Part shown: positions 1-18,086 of the stretch, piece after piece | Position numbering within the stretch: position 1 is the first letter of the stretch | Layout: every line of letters starts with the position of its first letter | Made by a program: the position numbers and the translations under genes | Assembly: GCF_009931435.1 (NCBI RefSeq) | Contig: NZ_CP043414.1 | Source of the DNA: Escherichia coli | GTDB taxonomy: Bacteria > Pseudomonadota > Gammaproteobacteria > Enterobacterales > Enterobacteriaceae | Reading direction: 5' to 3' (one strand) | DNA: 64,000 nucleotides | Notes under the pieces: model-generated | What the model was told of the DNA's origin: nothing | Seen by the model: the letters and a program-made list of their open reading frames with translations, nothing else | Database searches by the model: none

Positions 1-580
1 GATAATTACGCAGCGTTTCTTCGGCTATTTGTAATTGCGCATAAGCCAGTTGCTGATTGAAATAGCTTTGCGCGACATTAGAAACCAGCAGAATATGCAC
101 CGCGCGCTGAGCTTCCTCAGTAGCTAAATAATTTTGTCGCTCGGCTTCGCTCATATTCTTTAAGCGACCGAAAAAATCGAGATCAAAGCTGGCGTTAAGG
201 CCAGTCGAGAACTCCCGCGTCGTGGCGGTATTCCCTTTAAGATTGCCGCTCCAGCTGCCGCTACCCTCGCCATTGAGCTGTGGGTAGCGGTCGGCATCGG
301 TCAGACGATATTGCGCCCGCGCTTCCTGCACTTTCAGCGTCGCCATGCGCAAATCCCGGTTATTCACCAGCGCCTCGCTAATCAGCGTCTTCACCTGATT
401 ATCAACAAAAAAGGTGCGCCAGCCCGCGTTCTGGTAGTTATCTACCGCGTTAACCAGGCCGTTCTGGCTGAGTGAGAACTGCTGCGGCACGGGCATTGCC
501 GGACGCTGATAATCCGGTGCCAGTGAACAACCGGTTAGCGCAAGGGCCACACAAAATGGCAGAAGTTTACAAGGAGACAT
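1..580 (-). CDS. cusC: Copper/silver efflux outer membrane factor CusC, 5' portion only (gene runs off the window start)
   Basis: Reverse-strand translation from about 580 gives a lipoprotein signal peptide and OMF-like N-terminus; divergent from cusRS as in K-12. Confidence 0.8.
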   Translation of the reverse strand, partial: MSPCKLLPFCVALALTGCSLAPDYQRPAMPVPQQFSLSQNGLVNAVDNYQNAGWRTFFVDNQVKTLISEALVNNRDLRMATLKVQEARAQYRLTDADRYPQLNGEGSGSWSGNLKGNTATTREFSTGLNASFDLDFFGRLKNMSEAERQNYLATEEAQRAVHILLVSNVAQSYFNQQLAYAQLQIAEETLRNY

Positions 581-649
581 AGGCACATAATTTCTGGTGA
601 TTTTATGCCGCCAACTTTACACGCCAGGCTCTGATTTTCCGGTGACAGG

Positions 650-671
650 AAAATGACAAAATTGTCATTTT
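650..671. promoter_or_regulatory. CusR box: palindrome AAAATGACAA-nn-TTGTCATTTT in the cusC-cusR divergent intergenic region
   Basis: Perfect inverted repeat read directly; matches the known copper-box consensus by recall. Confidence 0.6.
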
Positions 672-736
672 GCCAATAAGCGATTGCCATCTGATCCCGC
701 TACTCTAGAATTGCCCGGGCAACATGCGGAGGAAAT

Positions 737-1420
737 ATGAAACTGTTGATTGTCGAAGATGAAAAGAAAACCGGCGAATACTTAACCAAAGGGTTAACCG
801 AGGCCGGTTTTGTGGTTGATTTGGCCGATAACGGGCTGAATGGATATCATCTGGCGATGACAGGTGATTATGACCTGATAATCCTCGATATTATGCTGCC
901 GGACGTGAACGGCTGGGATATTGTGCGCATGTTGCGTTCCGCCAATAAAGGGATGCCGATTCTGTTGCTTACCGCGCTTGGCACCATTGAACATCGCGTC
1001 AAGGGGCTGGAGCTGGGAGCGGATGACTATCTGGTGAAGCCGTTCGCTTTTGCTGAACTGCTGGCACGGGTGCGCACTCTACTGCGGCGCGGGGCGGCGG
1101 TAATTATCGAAAGTCAGTTTCAGGTTGCCGATTTAATGGTTGATCTGGTCAGCCGCAAAGTCACCCGCAGCGGCACGCGCATCACTTTGACCAGTAAAGA
1201 ATTTACTCTGCTGGAGTTTTTCCTCCGCCATCAGGGTGAAGTGCTGCCCCGCTCGCTTATCGCCTCGCAGGTGTGGGACATGAATTTCGACAGCGACACT
1301 AACGCTATTGATGTGGCGGTGAAGCGGCTACGCGGCAAAATCGACAATGATTTCGAGCCAAAGTTAATTCAGACCGTACGCGGCGTAGGTTACATGCTTG
1401 AGGTGCCGGATGGCCAGTAA
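737..1420 (+). CDS. cusR: Copper-responsive response regulator CusR (OmpR family)
   Basis: ORF track 227 aa; receiver domain plus winged-helix C-terminus; followed by overlapping sensor kinase gene. Confidence 0.93.
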
Positions 1421-2852
1421 GCCGTTTCAGCGCCCGTTTTCGCTGGCAACCCGCCTGACCTTTTTTATCAGCCTTGCCACCATTGCAGCGTTTTTCGTCT
1501 TTGCCTGGATCATGATCCACTCGGTAAAAGTGCATTTTGCCGAGCAGGATATTAATGATTTAAAAGAGATTAGCGCCACATTCAAGCGCGTTCTTAATCA
1601 TCCCGAAGAGACACAAGCCCGACGCTTAATGACGCTGGAAGATATCGTCAGTGGTTATTCCAACGTGTTGATTTCTCTGGCAGATAGCCACGGTAAAACG
1701 GTGTATCACTCCCCCGGTGCGCCGGATATCCGCGAGTTTGCACGTGATGCCATACCCGATAAAGACGCTCGGAGCGGCGAGGTGTATCTCCTTTCCGGCC
1801 CGACAATGATGATGCCAGGCCACGGTCACGGGCATATGGAACACAGCAACTGGCGGATGATTAACTTGCCGGTTGGCCCGTTGGTGGACGGCAAACCGAT
1901 TTATACGCTCTACATCGCGCTGTCTATCGATTTTCATCTTCATTACATTAATGATTTGATGAATAAACTTATTATGACCGCATCGATCATCAGCATCCTG
2001 ATCGTCTTTATCGTGCTGCTGGCGGTACATAAAGGCCACGCGCCAATTCGCAGCGTCAGCCGTCAAATCCAGAACATTACCTCGAAAGATCTCGACGTTC
2101 GCCTCGATCCACAGACCGTGCCCATTGAACTCGAACAACTGGTGCTGTCGTTCAACCATATGATCGAGCGTATCGAGGATGTCTTTACCCGCCAGTCCAA
2201 TTTCTCAGCGGATATCGCCCACGAAATTCGCACGCCGATTACGAATCTTATAACGCAAACGGAAATCGCCCTCAGCCAGTCGCGCAGCCAGAAGGAGCTG
2301 GAAGATGTGCTCTACTCTAATCTCGAAGAGCTGACGCGAATGGCGAAAATGGTCAGCGATATGCTGTTTCTCGCTCAGGCCGATAACAACCAGTTAATCC
2401 CCGAAAAGAAAATGCTCAACCTGGCGGATGAAGTCGGCAAAGTGTTCGATTTTTTCGAGGCGTTAGCGGAAGATCGCGGCGTGGAGTTGCGGTTTGTTGG
2501 TGACGAGTGTCAGGTTGCGGGCGATCCGCTGATGTTGCGTCGGGCGTTAAGCAACCTGCTTTCTAACGCCCTGCGTTATACGCCGCCCGGAGAGGCAATT
2601 GTAGTGCGCTGCCAGACGGTCGATCACCAGGTGCAAGTTACCGTCGAAAACCCCGGTACGCCCATTGCGCCCGAGCATTTACCGCGTTTGTTTGACCGTT
2701 TCTACCGCGTTGATCCTTCCCGCCAGCGAAAAGGTGAAGGTAGCGGTATTGGGCTGGCGATAGTGAAATCGATTGTTGTCGCGCATAAAGGCACGGTTGC
2801 GGTAACGTCAGATGCGCGGGGAACAAGGTTTGTTATCATATTACCCGCTTAA
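1410..2852 (+). CDS. cusS: Copper/silver sensor histidine kinase CusS
   Basis: ORF track 1398..2852; ATG at 1410 (MASKPF...) overlaps the cusR stop; two TM segments, H-box and HATPase motifs. Confidence 0.9.
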
Positions 2853-3001
2853 TCCTTCAGCAATCGGCAACTTTTATAACCAGTGTAAAAATAACGTGCC
2901 GCAATAATCCTACCTATTAATGATAAAAAGCTGTCACAATTCATAAAAAACTTTAATATACGCCACCCTAAACATAACCAGCGTTAATGTAAGGTTTTTG
3001 T

Positions 3002-5239
3002 GTGGACTGGCTTCTTGATGTTTTTGCAACCTGGCTATATGGCTTAAAAGTAATCGCGATAACGTTAGCGGTCATCATGTTCATCAGCGGGCTGGACGAT
3101 TTTTTTATTGATGTCGTCTACTGGGTACGCCGCATTAAACGCAAGTTGAGTGTTTATCGCCGCTACCCGCGAATGAGTTACCGCGAACTGTATAAACCAG
3201 ATGAAAAACCGTTAGCGATTATGGTTCCGGCGTGGAATGAAACGGGCGTCATCGGCAATATGGCCGAGCTGGCGGCGACCACGCTCGACTATGAAAACTA
3301 TCATATCTTTGTTGGCACCTACCCCAACGACCCCGATACTCAGCGTGATGTTGACGAAGTGTGCGCTCGCTTCCCAAACGTGCATAAGGTAGTCTGCGCT
3401 CGTCCTGGCCCCACCAGCAAAGCCGACTGCCTGAACAACGTGCTGGACGCCATCACCCAGTTTGAGCGTAGCGCCAATTTCGCTTTTGCTGGTTTTATTC
3501 TGCATGACGCCGAAGACGTAATTTCACCGATGGAATTGCGTCTGTTCAACTATCTGGTCGAGCGTAAAGATCTGATTCAGATCCCGGTATACCCATTCGA
3601 ACGCGAATGGACGCACTTCACCAGCATGACTTACATTGATGAGTTTTCAGAACTGCATGGCAAAGATGTTCCGGTGCGTGAAGCCCTCGCCGGACAGGTG
3701 CCCAGCGCAGGCGTCGGTACTTGTTTCAGCCGCCGCGCCGTGACCGCACTGTTAGCTGACGGTGACGGTATTGCTTTCGACGTGCAGAGTCTTACTGAAG
3801 ATTACGACATTGGTTTCCGCCTGAAAGAAAAAGGTATGACGGAAATTTTTGTCCGTTTTCCGGTGGTGGACGAAGCCAAAGAACGCGAGCAGCGTAAATT
3901 TTTACAGCACGCGCGGACGTCAAACATGATCTGCGTGCGCGAATATTTCCCCGATACCTTTTCGACGGCGGTTCGACAAAAGTCTCGCTGGATCATCGGC
4001 ATTGTTTTCCAGGGCTTTAAAACCCATAAATGGACCTCCAGCCTGACACTCAACTACTTTCTCTGGCGCGACCGCAAAGGGGCAATCAGTAACTTTGTCA
4101 GCTTCCTCGCGATGCTGGTGATGATCCAGCTTTTGCTGTTACTGGCGTATGAAAGTTTGTGGCCCGATGCCTGGCATTTCCTTTCTATTTTCAGCGGCAG
4201 CACATGGTTAATGACCCTGCTGTGGCTAAACTTTGGTTTGATGGTTAACCGCATCGTGCAGCGGGTGATTTTTGTCACTGGCTACTACGGTCTGACGCAG
4301 GGGCTGCTATCTGTCCTGCGTCTTTTCTGGGGCAACCTGATTAACTTCATGGCCAACTGGCGCGCGTTAAAACAGGTGCTTCAACACGGCGATCCACGTC
4401 GCGTCGCGTGGGATAAAACAACGCATGACTTCCCCAGCGTCACTGGCGATACCCGCTCGTTGCGCCCGTTAGGTCAAATTCTGCTGGAAAATCAGGTCAT
4501 CACTGAAGAACAACTCGATACGGCACTGCGTAATCGTGTCGAAGGTCTACGCCTGGGCGGTTCAATGCTGATGCAGGGGCTGATTAGCGCCGAACAGCTG
4601 GCACAGGCACTGGCAGAGCAAAACGGCGTGGCGTGGGAGTCCATCGATGCCTGGCAGATCCCTTCTTCGCTGATTGCCGCGATGCCGGCCTCCGTGGCGC
4701 TGCATTATGCGGTGCTACCGCTGCGTCTGGAAAATGATGAGTTAATTGTCGGCAGTGAAGATGGTATTGACCCGGTTTCGCTGGCAGCCCTGACGCGTAA
4801 AGTTGGACGCAAAGTGCGTTACGTCATTGTTCTGCGAGGACAAATTGTCACCGGATTACGTCACTGGTATGCACGTCGACGCGGTCACGATCCACGGGCA
4901 ATGTTGTACAATGCGGTTCAGCATCAGTGGCTCACGGAACAACAGGCCGGTGAAATCTGGCGGCAATATGTGCCGCATCAGTTCCTGTTCGCCGAAATAC
5001 TGACCACGCTCGGTCATATTAATCGTTCAGCAATTAACGTGTTGTTATTGCGCCATGAACGCAGTTCTCTGCCGCTCGGCAAGTTTTTGGTCACCGAAGG
5101 CGTTATCAGCCAGGAAACGTTGGATCGCGTCCTGACAATTCAGCGCGAATTACAAGTTTCGATGCAATCACTATTACTCAAAGCAGGTTTAAACACAGAA
5201 CAGGTTGCGCAACTGGAGTCCGAAAATGAAGGAGAATAA
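3002..5239 (+). CDS. nfrB: Phage N4 adsorption protein B (inner membrane glycosyltransferase family)
   Basis: ORF track 745 aa, alternative (GTG) start; recognised as NfrB; K-12 gene order. Confidence 0.88.
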   Translation: MDWLLDVFATWLYGLKVIAITLAVIMFISGLDDFFIDVVYWVRRIKRKLSVYRRYPRMSYRELYKPDEKPLAIMVPAWNETGVIGNMAELAATTLDYENYHIFVGTYPNDPDTQRDVDEVCARFPNVHKVVCARPGPTSKADCLNNVLDAITQFERSANFAFAGFILHDAEDVISPMELRLFNYLVERKDLIQIPVYPFEREWTHFTSMTYIDEFSELHGKDVPVREALAGQVPSAGVGTCFSRRAVTALLADGDGIAFDVQSLTEDYDIGFRLKEKGMTEIFVRFPVVDEAKEREQRKFLQHARTSNMICVREYFPDTFSTAVRQKSRWIIGIVFQGFKTHKWTSSLTLNYFLWRDRKGAISNFVSFLAMLVMIQLLLLLAYESLWPDAWHFLSIFSGSTWLMTLLWLNFGLMVNRIVQRVIFVTGYYGLTQGLLSVLRLFWGNLINFMANWRALKQVLQHGDPRRVAWDKTTHDFPSVTGDTRSLRPLGQILLENQVITEEQLDTALRNRVEGLRLGGSMLMQGLISAEQLAQALAEQNGVAWESIDAWQIPSSLIAAMPASVALHYAVLPLRLENDELIVGSEDGIDPVSLAALTRKVGRKVRYVIVLRGQIVTGLRHWYARRRGHDPRAMLYNAVQHQWLTEQQAGEIWRQYVPHQFLFAEILTTLGHINRSAINVLLLRHERSSLPLGKFLVTEGVISQETLDRVLTIQRELQVSMQSLLLKAGLNTEQVAQLESENEGE

Positions 5240-8198
5240 CCTTAATCGCGTCATCGGATGGTCTGGTTTACTGCTGACGTCTTTATTGAGTACCAGCGCA
5301 CTCGCAGACAATATCGGCACCAGCGCAGAAGAGCTGGGGCTGAGCGATTATCGCCATTTTGTTATTTATCCCCGTCTCGATAAGGCGCTGAAGGCACAGA
5401 AAAATAACGACGAAGCAACCGCCATCCGCGAATTTGAATATATACACCAGCAGGTGCCGGATAATATTCCGCTGACTTTATACCTTGCGGAAGCCTATCG
5501 CCATTTTGGTCATGATGACCGGGCGCGGCTGTTGCTTGAGGATCAACTGAAACGTCACCCAGGAGATGCCCGACTTGAGCGCAGTCTGGCGGCTATTCCA
5601 GTTGAAGTGAAAAGCGTTACGACTGTTGAAGAACTGCTTGCCCAGCAAAAAGCGTGCGACGCTGCGCCGACCCTGCGTTGTCGCAGTGAAGTCGGGCAGA
5701 ATGCCCTGCGGCTGGCACAATTACCTGTCGCCAGAGCGCAACTGAACGATGCGACGTTTGCTGCATCGCCGGAAGGAAAAACGCTGCGAACCGATCTGCT
5801 GCAACGCGCAATCTACCTGAAACAATGGTCCCAGGCAGATACGCTATACAATGAAGCACGCCAGCAGAACACATTAAGCGCGGCAGAACGCCGTCAGTGG
5901 TTTGACGTGCTTCTTGCCGGGCAGCTGGATGATCGGATCCTGGCGCTGCAATCACAGGGGATCTTCACCGATCCGCAGTCATATATTACTTACGCGACCG
6001 CGCTGGCTTATCGTGGCGAGAAAGCACGCCTCCAGCATTATCTCATTGAAAATAAGCCGCTGTTTACCACGGACGCACAAGAGAAAAGTTGGCTCTATCT
6101 GTTATCTAAATACAGCGCCAACCCCGTTCAGGCGTTGGCGAATTATACGGTACAGTTTGCCGATAACCGCCAGTATGTTGTTGGCGCGACGCTACCGGTG
6201 CTGTTAAAAGAAGGTCAGTACGACGCAGCGCAAAAACTGCTCGCCACCCTCCCCGCCAATGAAATGCTTGAGGAGCGTTATACCGTCAGCGTGGCGACTC
6301 ATAACAAGGCTGAAGCTCTGCGTCTGGCACGATTGCTGTATCAGCAAGAACCGACAAATCTTACCCGCCTGGATCAACTGACCTGGCAACTGATGCAGAA
6401 CGAGCAGTCACGCGAAGCTGCCGATTTGTTGCTGCAACGCTATCCCTTCCAGGGCGATGCGCGCGTCAGCCAGACTTTAATGACGCGACTAGCGTCTCTG
6501 CTGGAAAGTCATCCTTACCTGGCAACTCCGGCGAAGGTGGCGATTTTATCGAAACCCTTACCGCTGGCGGAGCAACGTCAGTGGCAAAGTCAGTTGCCGG
6601 GTATTGCAGATAATTGCCCAGCAATCGTTCGCTTGCTGGGCGATATGTCGCCTTCCTACGATGCCGCCGCCTGGAACCGTCTGGCAAAGTGTTATCGGGA
6701 CACGCTACCCGGTGTGGCGTTGTATGCATGGCTTCAGGCCGAACAACGGCAACCGAACGCCTGGCAACATCGTGCGGTAGCCTATCAGGCGTATCAGGTT
6801 GAGGATTACGCCACCGCACTGGCGGCCTGGCAGAAAATCAGTCTTCACGACATGAGCAATGAGGATCTGCTTGCTGCTGCCAATACCGCCCAGGCGGCAG
6901 GAAATGGTGCGGCTCGCGATCGCTGGCTTCAGCAGGCAGAACAACGTGGGCTGGGAAACAATGCCCTCTACTGGTGGCTGCATGCGCAACGTTACATTCC
7001 TGGTCAGCCGGAACTCGCACTGAACGATCTCACGCGCTCAATCAATATTGCGCCTTCTGCCAACGCTTACGTTGCGCGGGCGACAATTTATCGCCAACGT
7101 CATAATGTCCCGGCGGCGGTGAGTGATTTGCGCGCCGCTCTGGAACTGGAACCGAATAATAGCAACACCCAGGCAGCGCTCGGTTACGCCTTGTGGGATA
7201 GCGGTGATATCGCACAGTCGCGGGAAATGCTCGAACAGGCGCATAAAGGGCTACCGGACGATCCGGCACTTATCCGACAACTGGCCTACGTGAACCAGCG
7301 TCTGGATGATATGCCTGCGACGCAGCACTACGCCCGTCTGGTGATTGATGACATTGATAATCAGGCGCTGATAACCCCACTGACCCCAGAGCAAAATCAG
7401 CAACGCTTCAATTTCCGCCGTCTGCATGAGGAGGTCGGTCGCCGCTGGACGTTCAGTTTCGATTCTTCTATCGGCTTGCGTTCCGGCGCAATGAGTACCG
7501 CTAACAATAATGTTGGCGGCGCAGCGCCAGGGAAAAGCTATCGTAGCTACGGGCAACTGGAAGCCGAGTACCGCATCGGACGCAATATGCTGCTGGAAGG
7601 CGACCTGCTCTCGGTTTACAGCCGTGTATTTGCCGATACCGGAGAAAACGGGGTGATGATGCCGGTGAAAAATCCGATGTCCGGCACCGGTCTGCGCTGG
7701 AAGCCGCTGCGCGATCAGATCTTTTTCCTCGCCGTCGAACAGCAATTGCCGCTGAACGGACAAAACGGCGCATCCGATACCATGCTGCGCGCCAGCGCCT
7801 CATTCTTTAATGGCGGCAAATACAGCGACGAATGGCACCCGAACGGTTCAGGCTGGTTTGCCCAAAACCTGTACCTCGATGCGGCGCAATATGTCCGCCA
7901 GGATATTCAGGCGTGGACGGCAGATTATCGCTTAAGCTGGCATCAGAAGGTGGCGAACGGACAGACTATTGAGCCTTACGCTCACGTTCAGGACAACGGT
8001 TATCGTGATAAAGGCACTCAGGGCGCGCAGCTTGGCGGTGTCGGGGTCCGCTGGAATATCTGGACCGGCGAGACGCACTACGACGCCTGGCCGCACAAAG
8101 TCAGTCTCGGCGTCGAATATCAACATACCTTTAAGGCGATTAATCAACGTAACGGAGAGCGCAACAACGCGTTTCTCACCATTGGAGTGCACTGGTAA
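5226..8198 (+). CDS. nfrA: Phage N4 receptor outer membrane protein NfrA (TPR-containing)
   Basis: ORF track 5205..8198; internal Met (MKENNL) gives 990 aa; signal peptide; overlaps nfrB end. Confidence 0.88.
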   Translation: MKENNLNRVIGWSGLLLTSLLSTSALADNIGTSAEELGLSDYRHFVIYPRLDKALKAQKNNDEATAIREFEYIHQQVPDNIPLTLYLAEAYRHFGHDDRARLLLEDQLKRHPGDARLERSLAAIPVEVKSVTTVEELLAQQKACDAAPTLRCRSEVGQNALRLAQLPVARAQLNDATFAASPEGKTLRTDLLQRAIYLKQWSQADTLYNEARQQNTLSAAERRQWFDVLLAGQLDDRILALQSQGIFTDPQSYITYATALAYRGEKARLQHYLIENKPLFTTDAQEKSWLYLLSKYSANPVQALANYTVQFADNRQYVVGATLPVLLKEGQYDAAQKLLATLPANEMLEERYTVSVATHNKAEALRLARLLYQQEPTNLTRLDQLTWQLMQNEQSREAADLLLQRYPFQGDARVSQTLMTRLASLLESHPYLATPAKVAILSKPLPLAEQRQWQSQLPGIADNCPAIVRLLGDMSPSYDAAAWNRLAKCYRDTLPGVALYAWLQAEQRQPNAWQHRAVAYQAYQVEDYATALAAWQKISLHDMSNEDLLAAANTAQAAGNGAARDRWLQQAEQRGLGNNALYWWLHAQRYIPGQPELALNDLTRSINIAPSANAYVARATIYRQRHNVPAAVSDLRAALELEPNNSNTQAALGYALWDSGDIAQSREMLEQAHKGLPDDPALIRQLAYVNQRLDDMPATQHYARLVIDDIDNQALITPLTPEQNQQRFNFRRLHEEVGRRWTFSFDSSIGLRSGAMSTANNNVGGAAPGKSYRSYGQLEAEYRIGRNMLLEGDLLSVYSRVFADTGENGVMMPVKNPMSGTGLRWKPLRDQIFFLAVEQQLPLNGQNGASDTMLRASASFFNGGKYSDEWHPNGSGWFAQNLYLDAAQYVRQDIQAWTADYRLSWHQKVANGQTIEPYAHVQDNGYRDKGTQGAQLGGVGVRWNIWTGETHYDAWPHKVSLGVEYQHTFKAINQRNGERNNAFLTIGVHW

Positions 8199-9089
8199 AT
8201 GCGTAAGTTCATTTTCGTATTGCTGACACTGCTTTTGGTCAGCCCTTTTTCCTTTGCGATGAAAGGTATTATCTGGCAACCACAAAACCGTGATAGTCAG
8301 GTTACCGATACCCAGTGGCAGGGGCTGATGAGTCAGTTACGTTTGCAAGGCTTCGATACCCTGGTTTTGCAATGGACCCGTTACGGCGATGCATTCACCC
8401 AGCCAGAACAGCGCGCGTTATTGTTTAAGCGTGCCGCAGCTGCGCAACAGGCTGGCCTGAAGCTGATTGTCGGGCTGAATGCCGATCCGGAATTTTTTAT
8501 GCACCAGAAACAGTCATCCGCGGCGCTGGAAAGCTATCTTAATCGCCTGCTGGCTGCCGATCTCCAGCAAGCCAGATTATGGAGCGCCGTACCTGGCGTA
8601 ACGCCGGATGGCTGGTACATCAGCGCGGAAATTGACGACCTGAACTGGCGCAGCGAAGCCGCCCGTCAGCCTTTGCTGACATGGTTAAACAACGCGCAGC
8701 GGTTGATTAGCGATGTTTCAGCAAAACCGGTTTATATCAGTAGTTTTTTCGCCGGAAACATGTCGCCCGATGGCTATCGCCAACTGCTGGAACACGTTAA
8801 AGCAACCGGCGTTAATGTCTGGGTACAGGATGGCAGCGGCGTGGATAAACTTACTGCTGAACAGCGTGAACGTTATCTACAGGCCAGCGCCGATTGCCAA
8901 AGCTCCGCCCCAGCAAGCGGCATTGTTTATGAACTGTTTGTCGCCGGCAAAGGCAAAACCTTTACAGCGAAACCGAAACCGGATGCAGAGATCGCCTCGC
9001 TGTTAGCGAAACGTTCCTCTTGTGGTAAAGACACGCTCTATTTCTCTCTGCGCTATTTGCCCGTCGCGCACGGCATTCTCGAGTATTAA
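8199..9089 (+). CDS. ybcH: Secreted protein YbcH
   Basis: ORF track 296 aa with signal peptide; immediately downstream of nfrA as in K-12. Confidence 0.75.
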   Translation: MRKFIFVLLTLLLVSPFSFAMKGIIWQPQNRDSQVTDTQWQGLMSQLRLQGFDTLVLQWTRYGDAFTQPEQRALLFKRAAAAQQAGLKLIVGLNADPEFFMHQKQSSAALESYLNRLLAADLQQARLWSAVPGVTPDGWYISAEIDDLNWRSEAARQPLLTWLNNAQRLISDVSAKPVYISSFFAGNMSPDGYRQLLEHVKATGVNVWVQDGSGVDKLTAEQRERYLQASADCQSSAPASGIVYELFVAGKGKTFTAKPKPDAEIASLLAKRSSCGKDTLYFSLRYLPVAHGILEY

Positions 9090-9271
9090 ATCTCCTCCAG
9101 GTAAGTCGGGTACGACCTGGCTTACCTCTTTCGCTCTCGTCAGAATTCCATCAAGATTAATTGCTAAAAAGCGTGCTAAAGAAAGAAGATCGTTATCGGC
9201 GAACGGGCCGATCACTCATGCAGGAAGCATAGATCCTTTGAGCGGAGTTTCTGATATCTGAGGAGTGCGAA

Positions 9272-10033
9272 ATGCAATTGAGCAGCAGTGAACCTTGCGT
9301 GGTGATCCTGACCGAAAAAGAGGTAGAGGTAAGCGTCAATAACCATGCCACGTTTACCCTTCCGAAAAATTACCTGGCCGCCTTCGCGTGCAACAATAAC
9401 GTCATTGAACTCTCAACGTTAAATCACGTATTAATCACCCACATCAACCGTAACATCATCAACGATTATCTGTTGTTTTTAAATAAGAACTTAACCTGTG
9501 TAAAGCCCTGGTCGCGGCTGGCTACCCCGGTTATCGCTTGTCATAGCCGTACACCGGAAGTGTTCCGGCTAGCCGCCAACCACAGCAAGCAGCAACCCAG
9601 CAAACCCTGCGAAGCGGAGTTGACGCGCGCATTGCTTTTTACCGTATTGTCTAACTTTCTTGAGCAATCGCGGTTTATTGCCCTACTGATGTATATCTTA
9701 CGCAGCAGCGTCCGCGACAGCGTCTGCCGCATTATTCAAAGCGATATTCAGCATTACTGGAATCTGCGAATTGTCGCCAGTTCGCTCTGTTTAAGCCCCA
9801 GCCTGCTCAAAAAGAAATTAAAAAACGAAAATACCAGCTATAGCCAGATTGTCACAGAGTGTCGTATGCGTTACGCCGTACAGATGTTATTGATGGATAA
9901 CAAAAATATCACTCAGGTGGCACAATTGTGTGGGTATAGCAGCACGTCGTACTTTATCTCTGTTTTTAAGGCGTTTTACGGCCTGACACCGTTGAATTAT
10001 CTCGCCAAACAGCGACAAAAAGTGATGTGGTGA
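9272..10033 (+). CDS. envY: AraC-family porin thermoregulator EnvY
   Basis: ORF track 253 aa; C-terminal AraC-type HTH; K-12 position next to ompT. Confidence 0.8.
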   Translation: MQLSSSEPCVVILTEKEVEVSVNNHATFTLPKNYLAAFACNNNVIELSTLNHVLITHINRNIINDYLLFLNKNLTCVKPWSRLATPVIACHSRTPEVFRLAANHSKQQPSKPCEAELTRALLFTVLSNFLEQSRFIALLMYILRSSVRDSVCRIIQSDIQHYWNLRIVASSLCLSPSLLKKKLKNENTSYSQIVTECRMRYAVQMLLMDNKNITQVAQLCGYSSTSYFISVFKAFYGLTPLNYLAKQRQKVMW

Positions 10034-10078
10034 AGGGCAAAGCGGAAACAGATAAGACTGGCATAAATGAAGAAGAAA

Positions 10079-10123
10079 TGGCGCGCCCTGCAGGATTCGA
10101 ACCTGCGGCCCACGACTTAGAAG
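10079..10123 (-). repeat. 45-bp copy of the 3' end of tRNA-Arg (prophage attachment-site repeat, distal end)
   Basis: Sequence tggcgcgccctgcaggattcgaacctgcggcccacgacttagaag identical to 58383..58427; diverges afterwards. Confidence 0.8.
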
Positions 10124-10546
10124 TTCCTAGAACGACATTTTAAGTCAACAACTTACCGCGCCATCTCTGCGCTCACACGTCCCACTACCTCAAAACATGT
10201 AAAGCCTTGCAAGCCATTGCGAGGCCTTATGTGTCTCAGTTTTGTCCCTCTTTTTTGTACTAAAAAACATAGTAATTGAGGATAAACCTCATGCTATTTT
10301 CGCTTATATGCCTCTAAAGGCATGGCACTTAAATAGATAAAAGCACCACAAAAGCATAAAAAAACCACACAGTAAAACCGAAATATGAAACAATAACAGA
10401 TAATTAAACCAAAAACAGATAGCGCATTGTGATAATCATTCAATACTAAACAAAATATAAACAGTGGAGCAATATGTAATTGACTCATTAAGTTAGATAT
10501 AAAAAATACATATTCAATCATTAAAACGATTGAATGGAGAACTTTT

Positions 10547-11500
10547 ATGCGGGCGAAACTTCTGGGAATAGTCCTGACAACCCCTATTGCGATCAGCTCT
10601 TTTGCTTCTACCGAGACTTTATCGTTTACTCCTGACAACATAAATGCGGACATTAGTCTTGGAACTCTGAGCGGAAAAACAAAAGAGCGTGTTTATCTAG
10701 CCGAAGAAGGAGGCCGAAAAGTCAGTCAACTCGACTGGAAATTCAATAACGCTGCAATTATTAAAGGTGCAATTAATTGGGATTTGATGCCCCAGATATC
10801 TATCGGGGCTGCTGGCTGGACAACTCTCGGCAGCCGAGGTGGCAATATGGTCGATCAGGACTGGATGGATTCCAGTAACCCCGGAACCTGGACGGATGAA
10901 AGTAGACACCCTGATACACAACTCAATTATGCCAACGAATTTGATCTGAATATCAAAGGCTGGCTCCTCAACGAACCCAATTACCGCCTGGGACTCATGG
11001 CCGGATATCAGGAAAGCCGTTATAGCTTTACAGCCAGAGGTGGTTCCTATATCTACAGTTCTGAGGAGGGATTCAGAGATGATATCGGCTCCTTCCCGAA
11101 TGGAGAAAGAGCAATCGGCTACAAACAACGTTTTAAAATGCCCTACATTGGCTTGACTGGAAGTTATCGTTATGAAGATTTTGAACTCGGTGGCACATTT
11201 AAATACAGCGGCTGGGTGGAATCATCTGATAACGATGAACACTATGACCCGGGAAAAAGAATCACTTATCGCAGTAAGGTCAAAGACCAAAATTACTATT
11301 CTGTTGCAGTCAATGCAGGTTATTACGTCACACCTAACGCAAAAGTTTATGTTGAAGGCGCATGGAATCGGGTTACGAATAAAAAAGGTAATACTTCACT
11401 TTATGATCACAATAATAACACTTCAGACTACAGCAAAAATGGAGCAGGTATAGAAAACTATAACTTCATCACTACTGCTGGTCTTAAGTACACATTTTAA
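10547..11500 (+). CDS. ompT: Outer membrane protease OmpT (omptin)
   Basis: ORF track 317 aa; signal peptide; recognised omptin sequence; AT-rich flanks. Confidence 0.9.
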   Translation: MRAKLLGIVLTTPIAISSFASTETLSFTPDNINADISLGTLSGKTKERVYLAEEGGRKVSQLDWKFNNAAIIKGAINWDLMPQISIGAAGWTTLGSRGGNMVDQDWMDSSNPGTWTDESRHPDTQLNYANEFDLNIKGWLLNEPNYRLGLMAGYQESRYSFTARGGSYIYSSEEGFRDDIGSFPNGERAIGYKQRFKMPYIGLTGSYRYEDFELGGTFKYSGWVESSDNDEHYDPGKRITYRSKVKDQNYYSVAVNAGYYVTPNAKVYVEGAWNRVTNKKGNTSLYDHNNNTSDYSKNGAGIENYNFITTAGLKYTF

Positions 11501-11749
11501 GAACGCCAACTAAAATTTCCCCGAGGTGAAAATCGCCCCGGGGAATAACTAGCCATTTCAATGTAACAATTAACCCTTAAAATAAACCCAGAAGGTTATT
11601 AACTAAATCACATAGAAAACCATCAATTATAGTATGTATAAAATAGGCGACAGCAACCCAATTACAAATTAATGGTTCCAGAATATCACATCAAAAAAAA
11701 CGCTGTATAATATTATAATTAACATGTAGACAACTTGTAATAAACATTA

Positions 11750-12499
11750 TCAGTCAATTGTTTTGTTTATTCCATCTGTGACGCCGATTATTTTCTCAAA
11801 ATAATGAGATGGCGTGACACCATAATAATCTTTAAATGCACATATGAAATATGAAGTACTGTTATAGCCACATTTCTGGGCTACGACATTGATAGAATAA
11901 GAGTTTGAAGTTATGAGTTTTTTTGCATACCTCATCCTAGTATCTCTCAATATTTCAGTAAATGACGTTCCTTCATCCCTTAATCTTTTTTTTATTAAAC
12001 TTTCACTCGTATAAATCAATTCCGCAATATCTTTTAAATGCCATTGCCGCTCAATATTAAAACTGATTATTCCAGTAATTTTACAGGTAAATGTATTTAT
12101 ATTTGTTAGTATAAATGAATTTACACTTTCGCGTTTTTTGAACATGGCAAGTAAGGATATACATAGTCTTTCTTTTAACCAAAGGGAGTGTGAGTCTGCT
12201 ATTTTAATCCCTTCAAACAGAGAAAAAACAAGCGATAATGGAGGTTCCTCTTCAGCAATATAGCCATTCTTATCAAGAGTAAATTTGCCAGGCAGCTCAT
12301 TATTCACGTCGATAAAAAAGGATAAACATGTTTTCTTATCTATATCAACAATTCTTAGTTTAGAGGGGCATACTGGTAACTCCCTTCTAATTTTGTCGCT
12401 TACAATAAACAATGAATTTTTTTTGAACGAGATAACTCTCCTGTTTATAATTAAATCAAATGATTGACAGATGAAAACTACGGAGCAAACATAATCCAT
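11750..12499 (-). CDS. appY: AraC-family transcriptional activator AppY
   Basis: ORF track 249 aa; C-terminal AraC HTH; low-GC gene. Confidence 0.82.
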
Positions 12500-13119
12500 C
12501 TTGCACCTATCATAAAATTAAAACAAGTTGATAGTAGTCAAATAACAACCAATTAAATACACAATCATAATCAGGATGATGTGCATTTATATTTTTATAC
12601 ACAAAATTATAGTTTGCAAATTTTAATAAATTTCATTTAAGATTAAATTATTATATGTATGTTGTTTTTTATTCTAACTTATTTCAAAGTTACATTTTTC
12701 AACGCTTACTATGCTTTTTATTAACATAAACTCACTACAACGCACCTGAAACCTCTTGCTATATATATGTCAACCGTTTGAATTTAAAATAAAAAGAGTA
12801 TCATTTTTACTTGCATTTCTTATCAAGTCACATTCAACAACAGTAAAAAAACATTATTAGAACCATTCAATTAACAAAAAACCAACATCCAGCTTGCTTA
12901 ATTTTTCTTTATTAAACGATATTGAAAATCAATTGATAAAATACATCTAAACAACCTTTTGGGGCGCAAAAGCATAACATCAAACAAACAAATAACACAC
13001 CGAAAAAACTCACAATTAATAACCTATGATATACATACTGTTTATTATGGTTGAATAAGCCACTCGATATCTGGTGCTACGGAAGTGTCCACACGGTTTA
13101 GCAGCACCCGATACTTTTT

Positions 13120-13305
13120 TCAGGCTTCCAGCAACGATCTTTCTTCCTCCGTTGCGATTTCCAGATCTACAGCATCCTGCAGTGGCGCAATATACTCACT
13201 GAATTCCTGGATGTAGAACTGTGTAGTGACGGTCTTCCAGCCATTCGGCTCCTGCTGTATTGAAGCATACCAGGCTATTTCAATATCGCTATGCTGCGGC
13301 AGCAT
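13120..13305 (-). pseudogene. tfaX: Tail fibre assembly protein remnant (C-terminal fragment, tfaX-like)
   Basis: 61-aa ORF shares the motif [23 protein letters not shown] with Tfa at 14095..14679; about 130-bp DNA direct repeat. Confidence 0.6.
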
Positions 13306-13443
13306 TTAACCCCTTGTAATTCATTGCCATAATTGATTTAATTCACAAATAAAACTATAACATGGTGAAATTAATAAAAAAACACAGATGATGGGGCTAG
13401 AATTTACACACCACTTACCCTAAAGCTTTATGACTGGTGGGTT

Positions 13444-14040
13444 TTGGGAGTATCAAATCGGCTTGCATGGGGATGTCCTACAAAGGAACACCTTCTTCCA
13501 CACCTTCTTCCACACTTTCTGGAACATTTAGGTAACAACCATCTGGATATTGGTGTTGGAACTGGGTTTTACCTTACTCACGTACCTGAGAGTAGTCTGA
13601 TATCTTTAATGGATTTGAACGAAGCTAGCCTGAACGCGGCATCTACAAGGGCTGGGGAATCAAAAATTAAACATAAAATTAGCCATGATGTTTTTGAACC
13701 TTATCCCGCGGCGTTACATGGTCAATTTGATTCCATTTCCATGTCTTACCTTCTTCACTGCCTGCCTGGAAATATATCTACAAAAAGCTGTGTAATACGC
13801 AATGCGGCGCAGGCCTTAACTGACGATGGAACTCTATACGGAGCCACAATTCTTGGCGATGGAGTTGTGCACAATAGCTTCGGTCAAAAACTGATGCGCA
13901 TTTACAATCAGAAAGGCATCTTTTCAAACACAAAAGATTCCGAAGAAGGCTTAACACATATACTCTCAGAGCATTTCGAGAATGTTAAAACCAAGGTTCA
14001 AGGTACTGTAGTAATGTTTTCCGCTTCAGGAAAAAAATAG
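13444..14040 (+). CDS. ybcY: Putative SAM-dependent methyltransferase-like protein (YbcY-like)
   Basis: ORF track 198 aa; glycine-rich motif LDIGVGTG resembling methyltransferase motif I; lies between tfa and the tfa remnant. Confidence 0.55.
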   Translation: MGVSNRLAWGCPTKEHLLPHLLPHFLEHLGNNHLDIGVGTGFYLTHVPESSLISLMDLNEASLNAASTRAGESKIKHKISHDVFEPYPAALHGQFDSISMSYLLHCLPGNISTKSCVIRNAAQALTDDGTLYGATILGDGVVHNSFGQKLMRIYNQKGIFSNTKDSEEGLTHILSEHFENVKTKVQGTVVMFSASGKK

Positions 14041-14094
14041 CATCCAACCGCAGCATGTTCTTGCTTAAGACGTGCTGCGGCATAATCCCAATGA

Positions 14095-14679
14095 TTACTC
14101 CCTGACAGGGTTCGTAGGCCACTCAATATCAGGTGCAGTTGATGTATCAACACGGTTCAGCAACACCCGATATTTTTTCCAGGCTTCCAGCAATGAGGTT
14201 TCTTCCTCCGTTGCGATTTCCAGATCTACAGCATCCTGAAGTGGCGCAATATGCTCACTGGCTACCTGCATCAGGCTGTTTTTTGTTTCTTCCGCCTCCC
14301 GAATCCGGAACAGTTTTTCTGCTTCTGCATCTTTCACCCAGGCTGTACCGTTCCACTTCTGAAACTCCCCTTCCGGCGATAACCAGGTAACATTTTCCGG
14401 TAACGGACCGAGTTCAGAAATAAATAACGCGTCCCCTGACGCTACGTCATAAACCGTTTTACCCCGATGATCTTCAACGAGATGCCACGATGACTCATCA
14501 CTGTTGAAAACAGCCACGAAGCCAGCTGGAATATCTGGCGGTGCAATGTCGGTACTGTTTGCTGGCAGACCTGTATGAGGCGGAATATATGCGTCACCTT
14601 CACCAATAAATTCATTAGTTCCGGCCAGCAGATTATAAATTGTTATGGTCCGTGGTTGTTCACTCATTCTGAATGCCAT
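14095..14679 (-). CDS. tfa: Tail fibre assembly protein Tfa
   Basis: ORF track 194 aa; start overlaps the stf stop by 1 nt; lambda Tfa-like. Confidence 0.85.
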
Positions 14680-17600
14680 TATGCAAGCCTCACAATATAG
14701 TTAAATGCGATGTTTTTGACGGTGTTTTCCGCGTTACCAGCAGCGTTAACGGTGATGGTGTGTCCATGTGAGCCAATCGCAACCGAGTGCGTATGAGCAC
14801 CAATACCGACAGTATGTGCGTGTGCACCTGCGCTTGCTGCAGTGCCGGACAGTGAGTGGGTATGAGCACCATCTGATGATGTCTTCCCTGCATTACGAGT
14901 CTGGCCACTACCGCTTGTTGTGCTCATAATCCCCGCGCTTGGATTTGAAATCGCGGTATAACCATTAGGGAAAATGCTCGTGTTCGTGCCACCAAATGCA
15001 CCGGAACTCTTGTGTTGGTGCGCACCGGCACTATTTGCGGTCCCGCTAATACTATGGGTATGCGCCCCGGTGTTATTCGTGGATTTGGTTCCGTAATCAA
15101 ACGACGATGTGGTTTTCGTCCCCAAATCCGTACTGGATGCGCTGGCGCTGTGGGTATGCGATTTAATGCCGTCCTGTTCCTGAGACAATACGGCCCGACC
15201 ACTGGCAGGTTTGCCCTTAATCGTCCAGCCACGCATATCAGGGATCACGCCTGACGGATAAGCCGCTGCAAGTTTCGGGTAGGCAGATTTGTCAAAAGCC
15301 TGCCCCTGCATCAGGGCATAGCCAGACGGAACGGTATCTGATGGCCACGGGATTGGTGCGCCGACTGGGTAGCTTTCTGGTGGAAGATTTTTCGAGGTAT
15401 AAACTTCTGCCCAGTCTTCCTCAAAACCATAGCCATCTCTTGAGGAACGGTAGAACAGACCTCCATTTCTGTAATGCGCCTTCATCTGCAGGGTCCGGCA
15501 ACTTCCGACTCCGGTATAGAAGTTAACCAGAATATAGCTGTCGCCAGAGCGGGTGACATTGTAAGCGCCTGATTCGGCATTCCAGGGAACGCCACCATCC
15601 GCATCGGCATATGTATCCGTTGCCCTTCTGGCAAAAGCAGCCACATGCGCGGCGGTTAAAGTAATATCTTTGGAACCATCAAACTCAACACCAGAAACCA
15701 GTCTTGGCGTTTGCAGCTTTGTTGCTGTTAATGCATTACCGTTCAGACTTGCGGACAGTTTGGTTCCAATAATCAGTTCGCCGGTTGCGTTATCAATAGC
15801 AAACGGTCTTAATGTATTCCAGCCACCATAAACATCACCTTGATTGGTAAGCAGCAGGTAAGTTTTAGCGCCATCATTACGCCATAATGCACCATACTCC
15901 CCACCTATCATTCGAATCTGATTACCACCACGCGCTACAATTTCGTCTGTGGCAAAAAGTTTTTTGCACGACAAGTTATCGTTAACGATTAACGAATGAG
16001 ACTCATAAAAACCACGCCCACTCTTAAAATCAAGGATAACGTCCGCCGCGATACATTCAGTCGCCGGATTTGTTGCCCCAAACTTATAGGTCGTATCATT
16101 AACAACGAGATCAGCACCAGGTGCGGATATTGACAGGCCATCTTCGATAAACGCAAAAACAGGGAAAGCAGCGCCATCAACATAGAACACAGAGCGCAAA
16201 TCATCGCCCTTATTACTCATCATTATTGAGTGGATGGCTCGTTCATTGTTTTGATATTGCCAGAACATTCCATAAGCATAACGCCCCCTGTCAGTCCAGC
16301 CACCAGGCATAACAAATCCGTTAAACTCGCAGTTATTCATCGGATCGCCTGCGGTTCGCGTTGCCGTGGTGATAATGACCCTTGATGCCAGTTCGCTTAC
16401 TGAGCCAGCAGAACGCATAACAACAACAGGGTAATATTTTCCAGATGTTGCACCTGCAGGAGCGTTAACCCGCACATAACGCATACCACGCTTATCAGCA
16501 AAGTCTGTTTTACTGACCGCGTTAATGTTGTTCAGGAAGCGTCCCTTATCGGGTATATCAGCGCCGTTCTGGTCTTTCTGCAGACGTTTCTCTGCATTGT
16601 CATAGGCTGATTTTACTGCCTTTGGCGTTGCCGCCAGCGTTTCAGACGTACTGTTGGTCGCACTGCTGAGCTGTACTACCCCCTTTTTCGTCGTGCTCGC
16701 ATCCTCAAGCGCCACGGCGGATGCAATATCCTCTGCCCGTTTTGCCGCTGTCTCGGCGCGCGTTGCCGCGGATTCCGCCGTACTTTTGCTCTGAGCTGCC
16801 GCCGTCGCACTGCCAGCTGCCTCTGTCGCCTTCGTGGATGCCGTCGTGGCGCTGCTCTTCGCTGCTGACGCTTGTCTGGTCGCCTCATCTTTTGAAGCAG
16901 ACGCAGATGATGCCGATGACGCCGCCGAACTGGCTGACGATGCGGCAGCCGTTTTTGAGGATTCTGCGCTGGTTTCCGACGCTTTCGCGTTCGTTTCGGA
17001 TGTCTTCGCTGCGGAAGCAGAACTCGCTGCTGCGCTGGCCTGTTCAGTGGCTTCGCCAGCCTTCGTTGTGGCTGTTGAAGCAGACGATGCGGCACTTTCT
17101 GCCGACTTTCCGGCAGCGGTGGCACTGGCTGAGGCCTGCCCGGCACTTGTTGACGCGGCGCTGGCAGATGATGCAGCCGCTGTTTTTGAGTCTGCTGCTG
17201 CGGAGGCACTCTGTTCCGCTGCCGTCTCAGAAGACTTAGCGTTCGTCTCGGACGTTTTTGCCGCCTTCGCGGAATTTCCTGCCGCCGTTGCCGAGGAAGC
17301 TGCGCTACTGGCGCTCGAGGATGCGTTCGTTTCTGATGATTTCGCTGCCTCTTTTGAGGCCGCCGCATCCCTGGCTGAGGTGGCAGCTTCTGACGCTTTC
17401 CTGGTCGCGGTGGATGCAGAAGTGGCTGCTGATTGTTGTGACGCTGCGGCATTCGTTTCTGACGTTTTCGCCGCACCGGCACTGGTGGCCGCCGCGCTTT
17501 TTGAGGACTCTGCAGCGGCAGCACTTTTTTCCGCTTCAGTGGCCTTTGCTGATGCCGTTCCTGCGCTGGAAGATGCTGACTGAGCCGACGACGCGGCCTG

Positions 17601-18086
17601 TCCGGCTGACGTGCTGGCTGCGCGTGCTGAGCCTGCAGCATCAGTCGCATGGGTTGCCGCCTCACTGGCAGATGTGCTGGCATCGCCGGCTGACTTCTTC
17701 GCGGCTGCCGTGTTTTGTGCCACCGCGGACGCGTTACGCGCCACCTCTTCCACCATCAGTTCAAAACGGCGCAGAGCCTCCGGACGGGCATCATCCTCCG
17801 TCATGGCACCGAGAAAATCATTCAGCGTACCGGGTCGGGAATCTTCATACACGGTGATGGTCCCGGCATGTGACGGCGGGAATCCTTCCACCAACAGAAT
17901 AACGCTGTACTGACCGTACTCAACGTCCATGCTGTAACGCCCGGCTTCATCCGGATTTTCTGAGGCCAGCGTGTTCACCACCACCGCGGTGCTGTTACGT
18001 TTTGCTTTCAGCTGGATTGTGCAGTTCTGTACCGGTTTTCCTGTGCCGTCTTTCAGTACACCTGAAATCTTTACTGCCATATTCAC
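14679..18086 (-). CDS. stf: Side tail fibre protein Stf with Ala/Ser/Thr-rich repeat region and His-rich C-terminal repeats
   Basis: ORF track 1135 aa; N-terminus and C-terminal GAHTHS/GAHAHT repeats match lambda Stf by recall; central region differs. Confidence 0.85.

Follow-up and report, generated by a model that had tools for sequence, protein, structure and literature searches.

A direct repeat of the tfa 3' end around a methyltransferase pseudogene in a probable DLP12-type prophage of Escherichia coli

We analysed a 64,000-nucleotide stretch of Escherichia coli DNA (contig NZ_CP043414.1, assembly GCF_009931435.1; hereafter the window) around a direct repeat that flanks the gene ybcY. 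Read along the strand of the late operon, the region contains stf, tfa, a hairpin, ybcY (on the opposite strand), tfaX, appY and ompT. The side tail fibre gene stf (14679–18086, minus strand) is intact, encodes 1135 residues with the Pfam domains phage_tail_N, Gp34_trimer and Collar, and lies directly upstream of tfa. The latter (14095–14679, minus strand) is also intact and encodes a 194-residue protein with a full-length tail fibre assembly domain in an open frame (Pfam Caudo_TAP, profile positions 1–130 of 131, E 3.2e-45). The last ~50 codons of tfa occur twice, once in this working gene and once in the relic tfaX, and this is the origin of the direct repeat. The two copies align without gaps over 157 nucleotides, at 13056–13212 and 14115–14271, and both lie on the minus strand; the right copy is inside intact tfa, while the left copy represents the 3' end of another allele of tfa. 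Base-by-base comparison gives 134 identical positions out of 157 (85.4%), with a longest perfect stretch of 40 nucleotides (13140–13179 and 14199–14238). BLASTN of 13000–14700 against the whole window returned this pair (85.35%, E 8e-47) and no other match, and a repeat scan of 11000–17000 found it to be the sole long direct repeat. The same-orientation repeat of about 130 bp reported in a first-pass annotation of this DNA is therefore real, lies far beyond chance and is somewhat wider than was claimed.

The left-hand gene, tfaX (13042–13305, minus strand), is a relic in which 61 codons are followed by an in-frame TGA (13120–13122), 25 more codons and a TAA (13042–13044). Alignment with intact tfa shows that the TGA stands in place of a TGG. 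The gene matches PHROG 2341 (E 5e-56), and the match of its 61-residue open reading frame (ORF) to Caudo_TAP (E 8e-7) is limited to profile positions 75–105, the part of the domain that the left repeat copy encodes. With only this 61-residue frame to scan, the TGA behind it and a 5' part of PHROG 3893 type, tfaX lacks a full-length Caudo_TAP domain in an open frame and is a fragment, not a member of the tail fibre assembly family. The 5' part comprises 31 codons (13213–13305, minus strand) that do not derive from tfa. Its profile match and its relatives trace it to PHROG 3893, a family of small phage genes; the match spans tfaX residues 3–37, so the similarity reaches into the repeat. An intact 79-residue ORF related to this part is found in Klebsiella phage Kp4882-3 (tblastn E 8e-6). 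In Citrobacter freundii an intact 80-residue ORF (locus L024:4699–4941), divergent from a 90%-identical ybcY orthologue, matches PHROG 3893 over its full length (E 8e-38). At the nucleotide level this Citrobacter contig is homologous to window positions 13219–14052, the lower end being 7 nucleotides from the junction with tfa at 13212/13213. Given the PHROG 2341 and 3893 matches, the Klebsiella ORF and the Citrobacter ORF with its homology ending at 13219, tfaX is, as judged from these alignments, a fusion between the 5' part of a small gene (~31 codons) and the final ~50 codons of another tfa allele.

In both of these loci (Klebsiella phage, L006:3004–3571; Citrobacter, L024:4307–4941) the PHROG 3893 protein of 79–80 residues is followed by a UmuD-like gene, which is intact in Kp4882-3 and reduced to split remnants in C. 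freundii; no Pfam domain was detected in either member of the Klebsiella pair. A DinI origin for the 5' part of tfaX was considered and rejected. The hit in phage Eeyore (tblastn E 0.1) lies on the strand opposite to the annotated DinI gene, BLASTP against the real Citrobacter DinI reached just E 0.14 over 14 residues, and the sense frame fits PHROG 3893. The Prokaryotic Genome Annotation Pipeline (PGAP) places a 27-codon 'DinI family protein, missing C-terminus' in strain IAI39 (L017:3402–3482), equivalent to approximately 13207–13287 on the plus strand of the window, and a real DinI gene is located just downstream of Citrobacter ybcY (L024:5745–5996).

Between the repeat copies lies ybcY (13362–14040, plus strand), identified as a class I S-adenosylmethionine (SAM)-dependent methyltransferase pseudogene by alignment with intact phage copies, by Pfam and by the 'frameshifted' call of PGAP. 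Its lesions were called by alignment with the intact genes of phages ev243, PhiR26_1 and Kati. A 2-bp deletion at about 13375, which converts ATGGTGAAATTAATGAAAAAAAAC to ATGGTGAAATTAATAAAAAAAC, is common to the window, K-12 and the closest relative, and RefSeq also calls the gene 'frameshifted' in the latter two. The deletion changes the second ATG to ATA, while the first ATG is out of frame and meets a stop after 9 codons. YbcY orthologues and the PHROG profile begin at the second ATG, which is preceded by GGTGA at a spacing that suits a ribosome-binding site and is the probable start codon. A phenylalanine-to-serine substitution at 13744–13746, also present in the closest relative, affects a residue that at least 90% of the homologues conserve. 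In addition, a 12-bp tandem duplication (13488–13511; ACACCTTCTTCC twice) adds the four residues HLLP. It is absent from every record listed among the best matches and the spread sample of 3835 matches, K-12 included (best full-length identity 98.5%), and so appears private to the source strain, which would fit decay of an already dead gene. An intact, translatable ybcY is thus missing from the window; on the evidence of the alignments the gene is inactivated and the structure here is a non-functional scar. The earlier description of a methyltransferase-like cargo gene holds for the opposite strand, the position between the copies and motif I, but the gene is a pseudogene in this window and not intact.

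What kind of enzyme was lost can be judged from the family. Intact YbcY has 218–222 residues (222 as annotated in phages) and belongs to PHROG 2132, function unknown. Motif I, LDIGVGTG (13543–13566, plus strand), is invariant in a protein alignment of 20 homologues, and four Pfam families score above their cut-offs: Methyltransf_12 (37.4 bits; cut-off 30), Methyltransf_23 (28.3; 27), Methyltransf_25 (27.4; 27) and Methyltransf_11 (24.8; 21.2). An AlphaFold2 model based on a 20-sequence alignment (predicted local distance difference test score 89.4) displays the seven-stranded beta-sheet with alternating helices. The Pfam assignment and the predicted fold, both of which the first-pass annotation had proposed as tests, thus agree on a class I SAM methyltransferase. 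The top Foldseek match of the model is the bacterial phosphatidylethanolamine N-methyltransferase PmtA (8ys9). Sequence searches of the PDB and NCBIfam gave marginal matches to UbiG, juvenile hormone acid methyltransferase, CpaM, RquA and PmtA, at E values of 1e-3 to 1e-2 and far below family cut-offs. At the level of class, YbcY is therefore predicted to be a methyltransferase of the small-molecule or lipid type.

Homologues of 55–90% identity, with length kept, occur in Citrobacter, Salmonella, Enterobacter, Klebsiella, Yersinia, Erwinia, Pantoea and others. The orthologues of Enterobacter hormaechei, Yersinia and Erwinia are solitary chromosomal genes in non-phage surroundings and, because related genes stand alone in this way on the chromosomes of other Enterobacterales, ybcY was probably captured from an enterobacterial chromosome. 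The ratio of nonsynonymous to synonymous substitution rates (Nei-Gojobori) between phage ybcY and its orthologues is 0.19 for Citrobacter, 0.11 for Salmonella and 0.11 for Enterobacter hormaechei; values of ~0.1–0.2 imply that the YbcY family is a working enzyme under purifying selection. An alpha/beta-hydrolase or carboxylesterase gene is often found near YbcY orthologues in Enterobacter (L008 7584–8414) and Erwinia (L015 4281–5813), and a 494-residue alpha/beta hydrolase lies beside tfaX in the modules of ev243, IAI39 and PhiR26_1 (L002 2953–4437). A functional pairing of methyltransferase and esterase is conceivable from this gene proximity. In the papers examined, ybcY was mentioned mostly in passing and no functional study was found.

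The 56-bp spacer between the divergent tfaX and ybcY (13306–13361) was identified by consensus scan and alignment as a putative divergent promoter region. The scan picked out two promoter-like sites, TTAACC-16-(TG)CATAAT at 13306–13333 and TTGATT-17-TATAAC at 13333–13361, and only one column of the spacer varies across five aligned sequences. The K-12 ybcY/tfaX spacer is included in a list of RpoD-holoenzyme targets from genomic systematic evolution of ligands by exponential enrichment, with TTGATT-17-TATAAC and H-NS binding (PMC3946193). At the other end of the gene a strong hairpin (14048–14080; RNA fold –22.1 kcal/mol, z = –4.3, plus strand) separates the converging ybcY and tfa and marks where the conserved cassette ends on the right, the shared core ending at 14080–14086 in Kati, O157 and RM13752. 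Transcribed from the strand opposite to the late operon, and with a GC content of 39–43% compared with ~50% in tfa and stf, ybcY would by these features probably be a cargo gene of the phage (a 'moron'), for which the spacer supplies a candidate promoter.

The cassette is widespread. In a comparison set of 5426 complete E. coli genomes, ybcY was present in 3830, at up to four places per genome and with 95–99% identity. It was also found in 15 phage records, isolated phages included, of which 14 cover most of the protein. Pairwise BLAST of ten loci defined a common core of approximately 13076–14086, which begins within the 3' part of tfaX, takes in the promoter spacer and ybcY, ends a little beyond the hairpin and is shared by ev243, PhiR26_1, Kati, IAI39, ST131, O157 and RM13752. 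What lies on either side of it varies. On the right the core is followed by a full tfa in the window, K-12 and PhiR26_1; by an 84–120-nucleotide tfa stub and other tail-fibre genes in ev243, IAI39 and ST131; by unrelated sequence leading to an invertase gene in Kati; and by a stress/ferritin-like/catalase cargo cluster in O157:H7 ECP19-798 and RM13752. On the left it is bordered by appY, by an alpha/beta hydrolase gene and ompT, or by ash/rha genes. The cluster in ECP19-798 (L019) and RM13752 (L020), at locus positions 4270–7050, consists of genes for a general stress protein, two ferritin-like proteins and a manganese catalase inserted between the hairpin and tfa, and the hairpin edge would therefore be another point of insertion or exchange. 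In strains of the uropathogenic E. coli (UPEC) type, the prophage has shrunk to ompT, an intact 222-residue ybcY, a tfa stub, an integrase stub and tRNA-Arg. In the example of E. coli FDAARGOS_1257 (L023; NZ_CP069480.1 951004–959149), ompT and ybcY are the only annotated features from ybcH to the tRNA without a pseudogene label, a hint that selection may maintain ybcY in such strains. A description of 'ompT 272 bp upstream of ybcY' in CFT073, UTI89 and 536 (PMC6854850) agrees with this remnant. Taken over these genomes, the tfaX-ybcY unit is, to judge from its distribution, an old and mobile module and not the product of a local event.

Sites that lack ybcY show how the repeat itself may have been used. 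One class of genomes matches a query running from appY through the spacer to ybcY as far as 13155 and no further. In strains MS 198-1 and 99-3165, appY and the spacer are followed by a 100-nucleotide tfa stub and alternative tail-fibre genes, with no hairpin, no ybcY and no small-gene fragment at either locus. The junction between stub and tail-fibre genes, GTTGCA followed directly by TATACAGC, is common to both strains and to the right-hand IAI39 stub, and ev243 departs from it at a single base. The stub of MS 198-1 has the tfaX allele throughout, whereas that of 99-3165 switches part-way from the tfaX allele to the allele of the right-hand copy. Such a hybrid repeat is as expected of a crossover between two direct copies. 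The ybcY-less arrangement was counted in 236 genomes, the appY-linked tfaX-ybcY in 564 and the full tfa + ybcY + tfaX in 1483. These junctions support the view that the conserved 3' end of tfa, with its 40-nucleotide perfect core, has served repeatedly as a crossover point.

The wider context places the locus in a known prophage. The window ORFs and the RefSeq annotation of K-12 and the nearest relative give the synteny ybcH-envY-ompT-appY-tfaX-ybcY-tfa. From this synteny, that annotation and the collinearity with a DLP12 relative, we consider it likely that the locus is the right arm of a DLP12-type lambdoid prophage and the repeat its known tfa relic. This degree of confidence applies jointly to the whole explanation that we favour, namely the DLP12 arm, the chimeric origin of tfaX, the re-used crossover point and the dead cargo methyltransferase. 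In K-12 MG1655 the corresponding genes are named tfaD', ybcY', tfaX' and appY. In the best matches, RefSeq labels tfaX 'tail fiber assembly protein (internal stop; missing N-terminus)', ybcY 'class I SAM-dependent methyltransferase (frameshifted)', tfa 'tail fiber assembly protein' and stf 'phage tail protein'. Between ~14.6 and 52 kb (14600–52100) the prophage in the window is collinear with the DLP12 relative of strain GPEC1446 (L029), without two insertions present there, where the major capsid gene contains ~11 kb of satellite-like DNA and ybcN an IS3. Because both insertions are absent, the prophage in the window may be structurally complete.

We envisage the following history. A lambdoid genome would once have carried tfa, the hairpin, ybcY, a divergent small gene of 80 codons and then a umuD-like gene; the Citrobacter relative retains the ybcY/small-gene/umuD-like part of this presumed order. 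An illegitimate join between approximately codon 31–35 of the small gene and approximately codon 140 of the tfa of a second phage would then have swapped the right arm of the first phage for that of the second, leaving a partial tfa duplicate diverged by 15%. Afterwards the tfa 3' end would have been re-used as a crossover point, with flanks re-sorted and the cassette gained or lost. The first-pass proposal of a recombination scar from tail-fibre cassette exchange survives insofar as there is a tfa relic and a discrete cargo cassette beside the tail-fibre genes. The event was not local, given ybcY in 3830 of the 5426 genomes, and the mechanism differs from a tidy swap, since a tfaX made of a non-tfa gene and a tfa 3' end speaks for an illegitimate join between two phage genomes.

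Several points weigh against this account. The order of events derives from present-day arrangements and not from a rooted phylogeny, and the Citrobacter arrangement could be derived and not ancestral. The 'second parent' would have had a full-length tfa, of the tfaX allele, immediately upstream of appY; none was found. The ybcY-less sites could be ancestral sites at which the cassette was gained, as opposed to products of deletion, although both readings use the same repeat. No intrinsic terminator was called by the scan between ybcY and tfa, where the hairpin is without an adjacent U-tract. In some genomes PGAP places a DinI fragment opposite the 5' part of tfaX, for which convincing DinI similarity was not reproduced. 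Lastly, 'small-molecule or lipid' as a description of YbcY rests on structural neighbours of 8–21% identity and would hold at class level.

Other explanations of the repeat have to be set beside this one. Invertible tail-fibre segments of the Gin/Cin/Pin/Min type are common beside tfa in E. coli prophages, and an invertase gene or fragment lies near the module in phage Kati and strain ST131, such that the second tfa copy might be the remnant of an invertible segment with an alternative tfa and fibre tip. However, the copies here are direct and not inverted, there is no invertase or recombinase ORF and no bracketing inverted repeat at 9000–18000 of the window, the relic is preceded by a fragment of an unrelated small gene and not by an alternative fibre tip, and the invertase of Kati is on the other side of ybcY, beside a working tfa. 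We rejected this explanation on the direct orientation and the lack of an invertase, and think it highly improbable. Still more remote is an in-situ tandem duplication of the tfa 3' end with subsequent insertion of ybcY between the copies. It would leave direct repeats around an insert, as is seen, but the copies have diverged by 15%, against 95–99% identity across thousands of genomes for the cassette that they enclose. Moreover, the left copy is joined, in one continuous reading frame, to part of the gene that neighbours ybcY in Citrobacter, and therefore ybcY and that fragment would have arrived together from another genome. There is a better, though still small, chance that tfaX is a functional small protein (PHROG 2341, 88–101 residues), with a new N-terminus on a C-terminal segment of Tfa, co-selected with ybcY. 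Its frame is open for 101 codons in ev243 and PhiR26_1, it forms a PHROG of its own, and it always travels with ybcY, sharing with it a promoter spacer to which RNA polymerase binds in vitro. Against this, the window and K-12 have the in-frame stop, the C-terminal end varies by lineage as crossovers fall inside tfaX, UPEC-type remnants have deleted tfaX while ybcY is intact, and the conservation may simply reflect recent spread, identity being 95–99% everywhere.

The function of ybcY admits alternatives of its own. The first-pass annotation had suggested an anti-restriction or modification role, by which a local tail-fibre cassette exchange would have trapped a methyltransferase that modifies DNA or counters restriction. 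The repeat does flank ybcY, which has a SAM-binding motif and a methyltransferase fold and adjoins host-range genes. In the 222-residue sequence, read directly, there is no (D/N/S)PP(Y/F/W) or PC...ENV motif, and Pfam gave no match to N6_Mtase, N6_N4_Mtase, DNA_methylase or MethyltransfD12 at E values up to 0.01. DNA methyltransferases are absent among the structural neighbours, and linkage to endonuclease or defence genes was not found either. A PADLOC search for a defence or anti-defence assignment returned nothing meaningful for YbcY, the 80-residue ORF or the UmuD-like protein. A role in DNA modification is consequently unsupported, and we give it very little credence. Purifying selection, the intact ybcY in shrunken UPEC-type prophages and PmtA as top Foldseek match would together speak for intact YbcY as a lysogenic-conversion enzyme kept for the benefit of the host, which we put forward as a long shot. 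Should YbcY methylate a small molecule or a lipid of the envelope, an unrecognised phage-borne modification of membrane or metabolite would be present in many E. coli lineages and would have escaped work in K-12, since the K-12 copy is dead.

The repeat structure is already known, being annotated in K-12 and by RefSeq, and is ancient and widespread in DLP12-type prophages. The window itself is of little importance, as a known prophage scar with an inactive cargo gene. Its value lies in the tfa 3' terminus as a clean natural example of a re-usable crossover point for the gain, loss and re-flanking of phage cargo, with both cassette-less and hybrid alleles visible in sequenced isolates, and in tfaX as a two-gene fusion that suggests how the partial duplicate arose. 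YbcY represents a conserved, uncharacterised enzyme family that ~70% of E. coli genomes and also active phages encode; it is not open to study in K-12 because the copy there is broken.

Some observations on the surrounding sequence complete the description. The cargo gene appY (11750–12499, minus strand), recognised by ORF translation and the annotation of relatives, lies downstream of tfaX across an AT-rich spacer (12500–13041; GC 24–30%). The region upstream of appY has been described as an H-NS-silenced 'promoter island' for which divergent transcripts of unknown function were reported (PMC4469952), and the spacer at 12500–13050 corresponds to that island. A literature search for tfaX turned up no more than this promoter island work. 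A minus-strand ORF of 45 codons (13985–14122), which overlaps the 3' end of ybcY, the hairpin and the 3' end of tfa, is called 'nucleocapsid protein' (WP_071592174.1) by RefSeq in K-12 and relatives, and is very likely a spurious call. The stf of the window diverges from that of GPEC1446 between ~15360 and 16620. Part of the gene (16550–17750) is an Ala/Ser/Thr-rich, low-complexity sequence of ~60% GC with an AT skew of –0.35 to –0.48, a composition that gives rise to long spurious ORFs in several other frames. The satellite-like insert of GPEC1446 bears integrase, primase and capsid genes.

Comparison with characterised systems sets the locus in perspective. The class I SAM methyltransferases nearest to YbcY act on small molecules or lipids and comprise PmtA (8ys9), juvenile hormone acid methyltransferase (7ec0), UbiG (4kdc), RebM (3bus) and MM_2633 (3dtn). 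YbcY shares just 8–21% identity with them, and its family motifs YDWWVL-x2-SN-x2-AW-x-C (N-terminal), HCLPG and YNxKGIF are without a characterised counterpart. The right arm of DLP12 in K-12 has the same genes in the same order and orientation as the window, with 99.4% identity over 12500–14533, the same ybcY allele including the 2-bp deletion and the same in-frame stop in tfaX. It differs in having lost the stretch from the terminase gene to mid-tfa, such that a truncated tfa is fused to a terminase fragment, whereas the window retains an intact tfa, stf and the structural genes and has its private 12-bp duplication in ybcY. The active phages ev243, 2G7b, PhiR26_1 and Kati carry the tfaX-ybcY core at 95–98% nucleotide identity, flanked by the tail-fibre genes and the integrase end and together with ompT. 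Unlike the window, they have an intact ybcY, and two of them, ev243 and PhiR26_1, have an open tfaX frame of 101 codons. Their neighbouring genes also differ: an alpha/beta hydrolase replaces appY in ev243 and PhiR26_1, ev243 has other tail-fibre genes and Kati has an invertase.

The closest parallel for the crossovers comes from phage lambda, which exchanges stf/tfa homology with defective prophages (PMC3945230), and whose Red system recombines sequences diverged by 12% at a penalty of only ~100-fold (De Paepe et al. 2014, PMC3945230). The mosaic junctions described there resemble those considered here in that a short, diverged stf/tfa homology would be the crossover substrate, with hybrid alleles present in natural isolates. 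In the window, by contrast, the homologous stretches are direct copies in a single genome, so that a crossover deletes or inserts a cassette rather than exchanging alleles. The join that founded tfaX seems to have been illegitimate, a route deemed rarer in that work.

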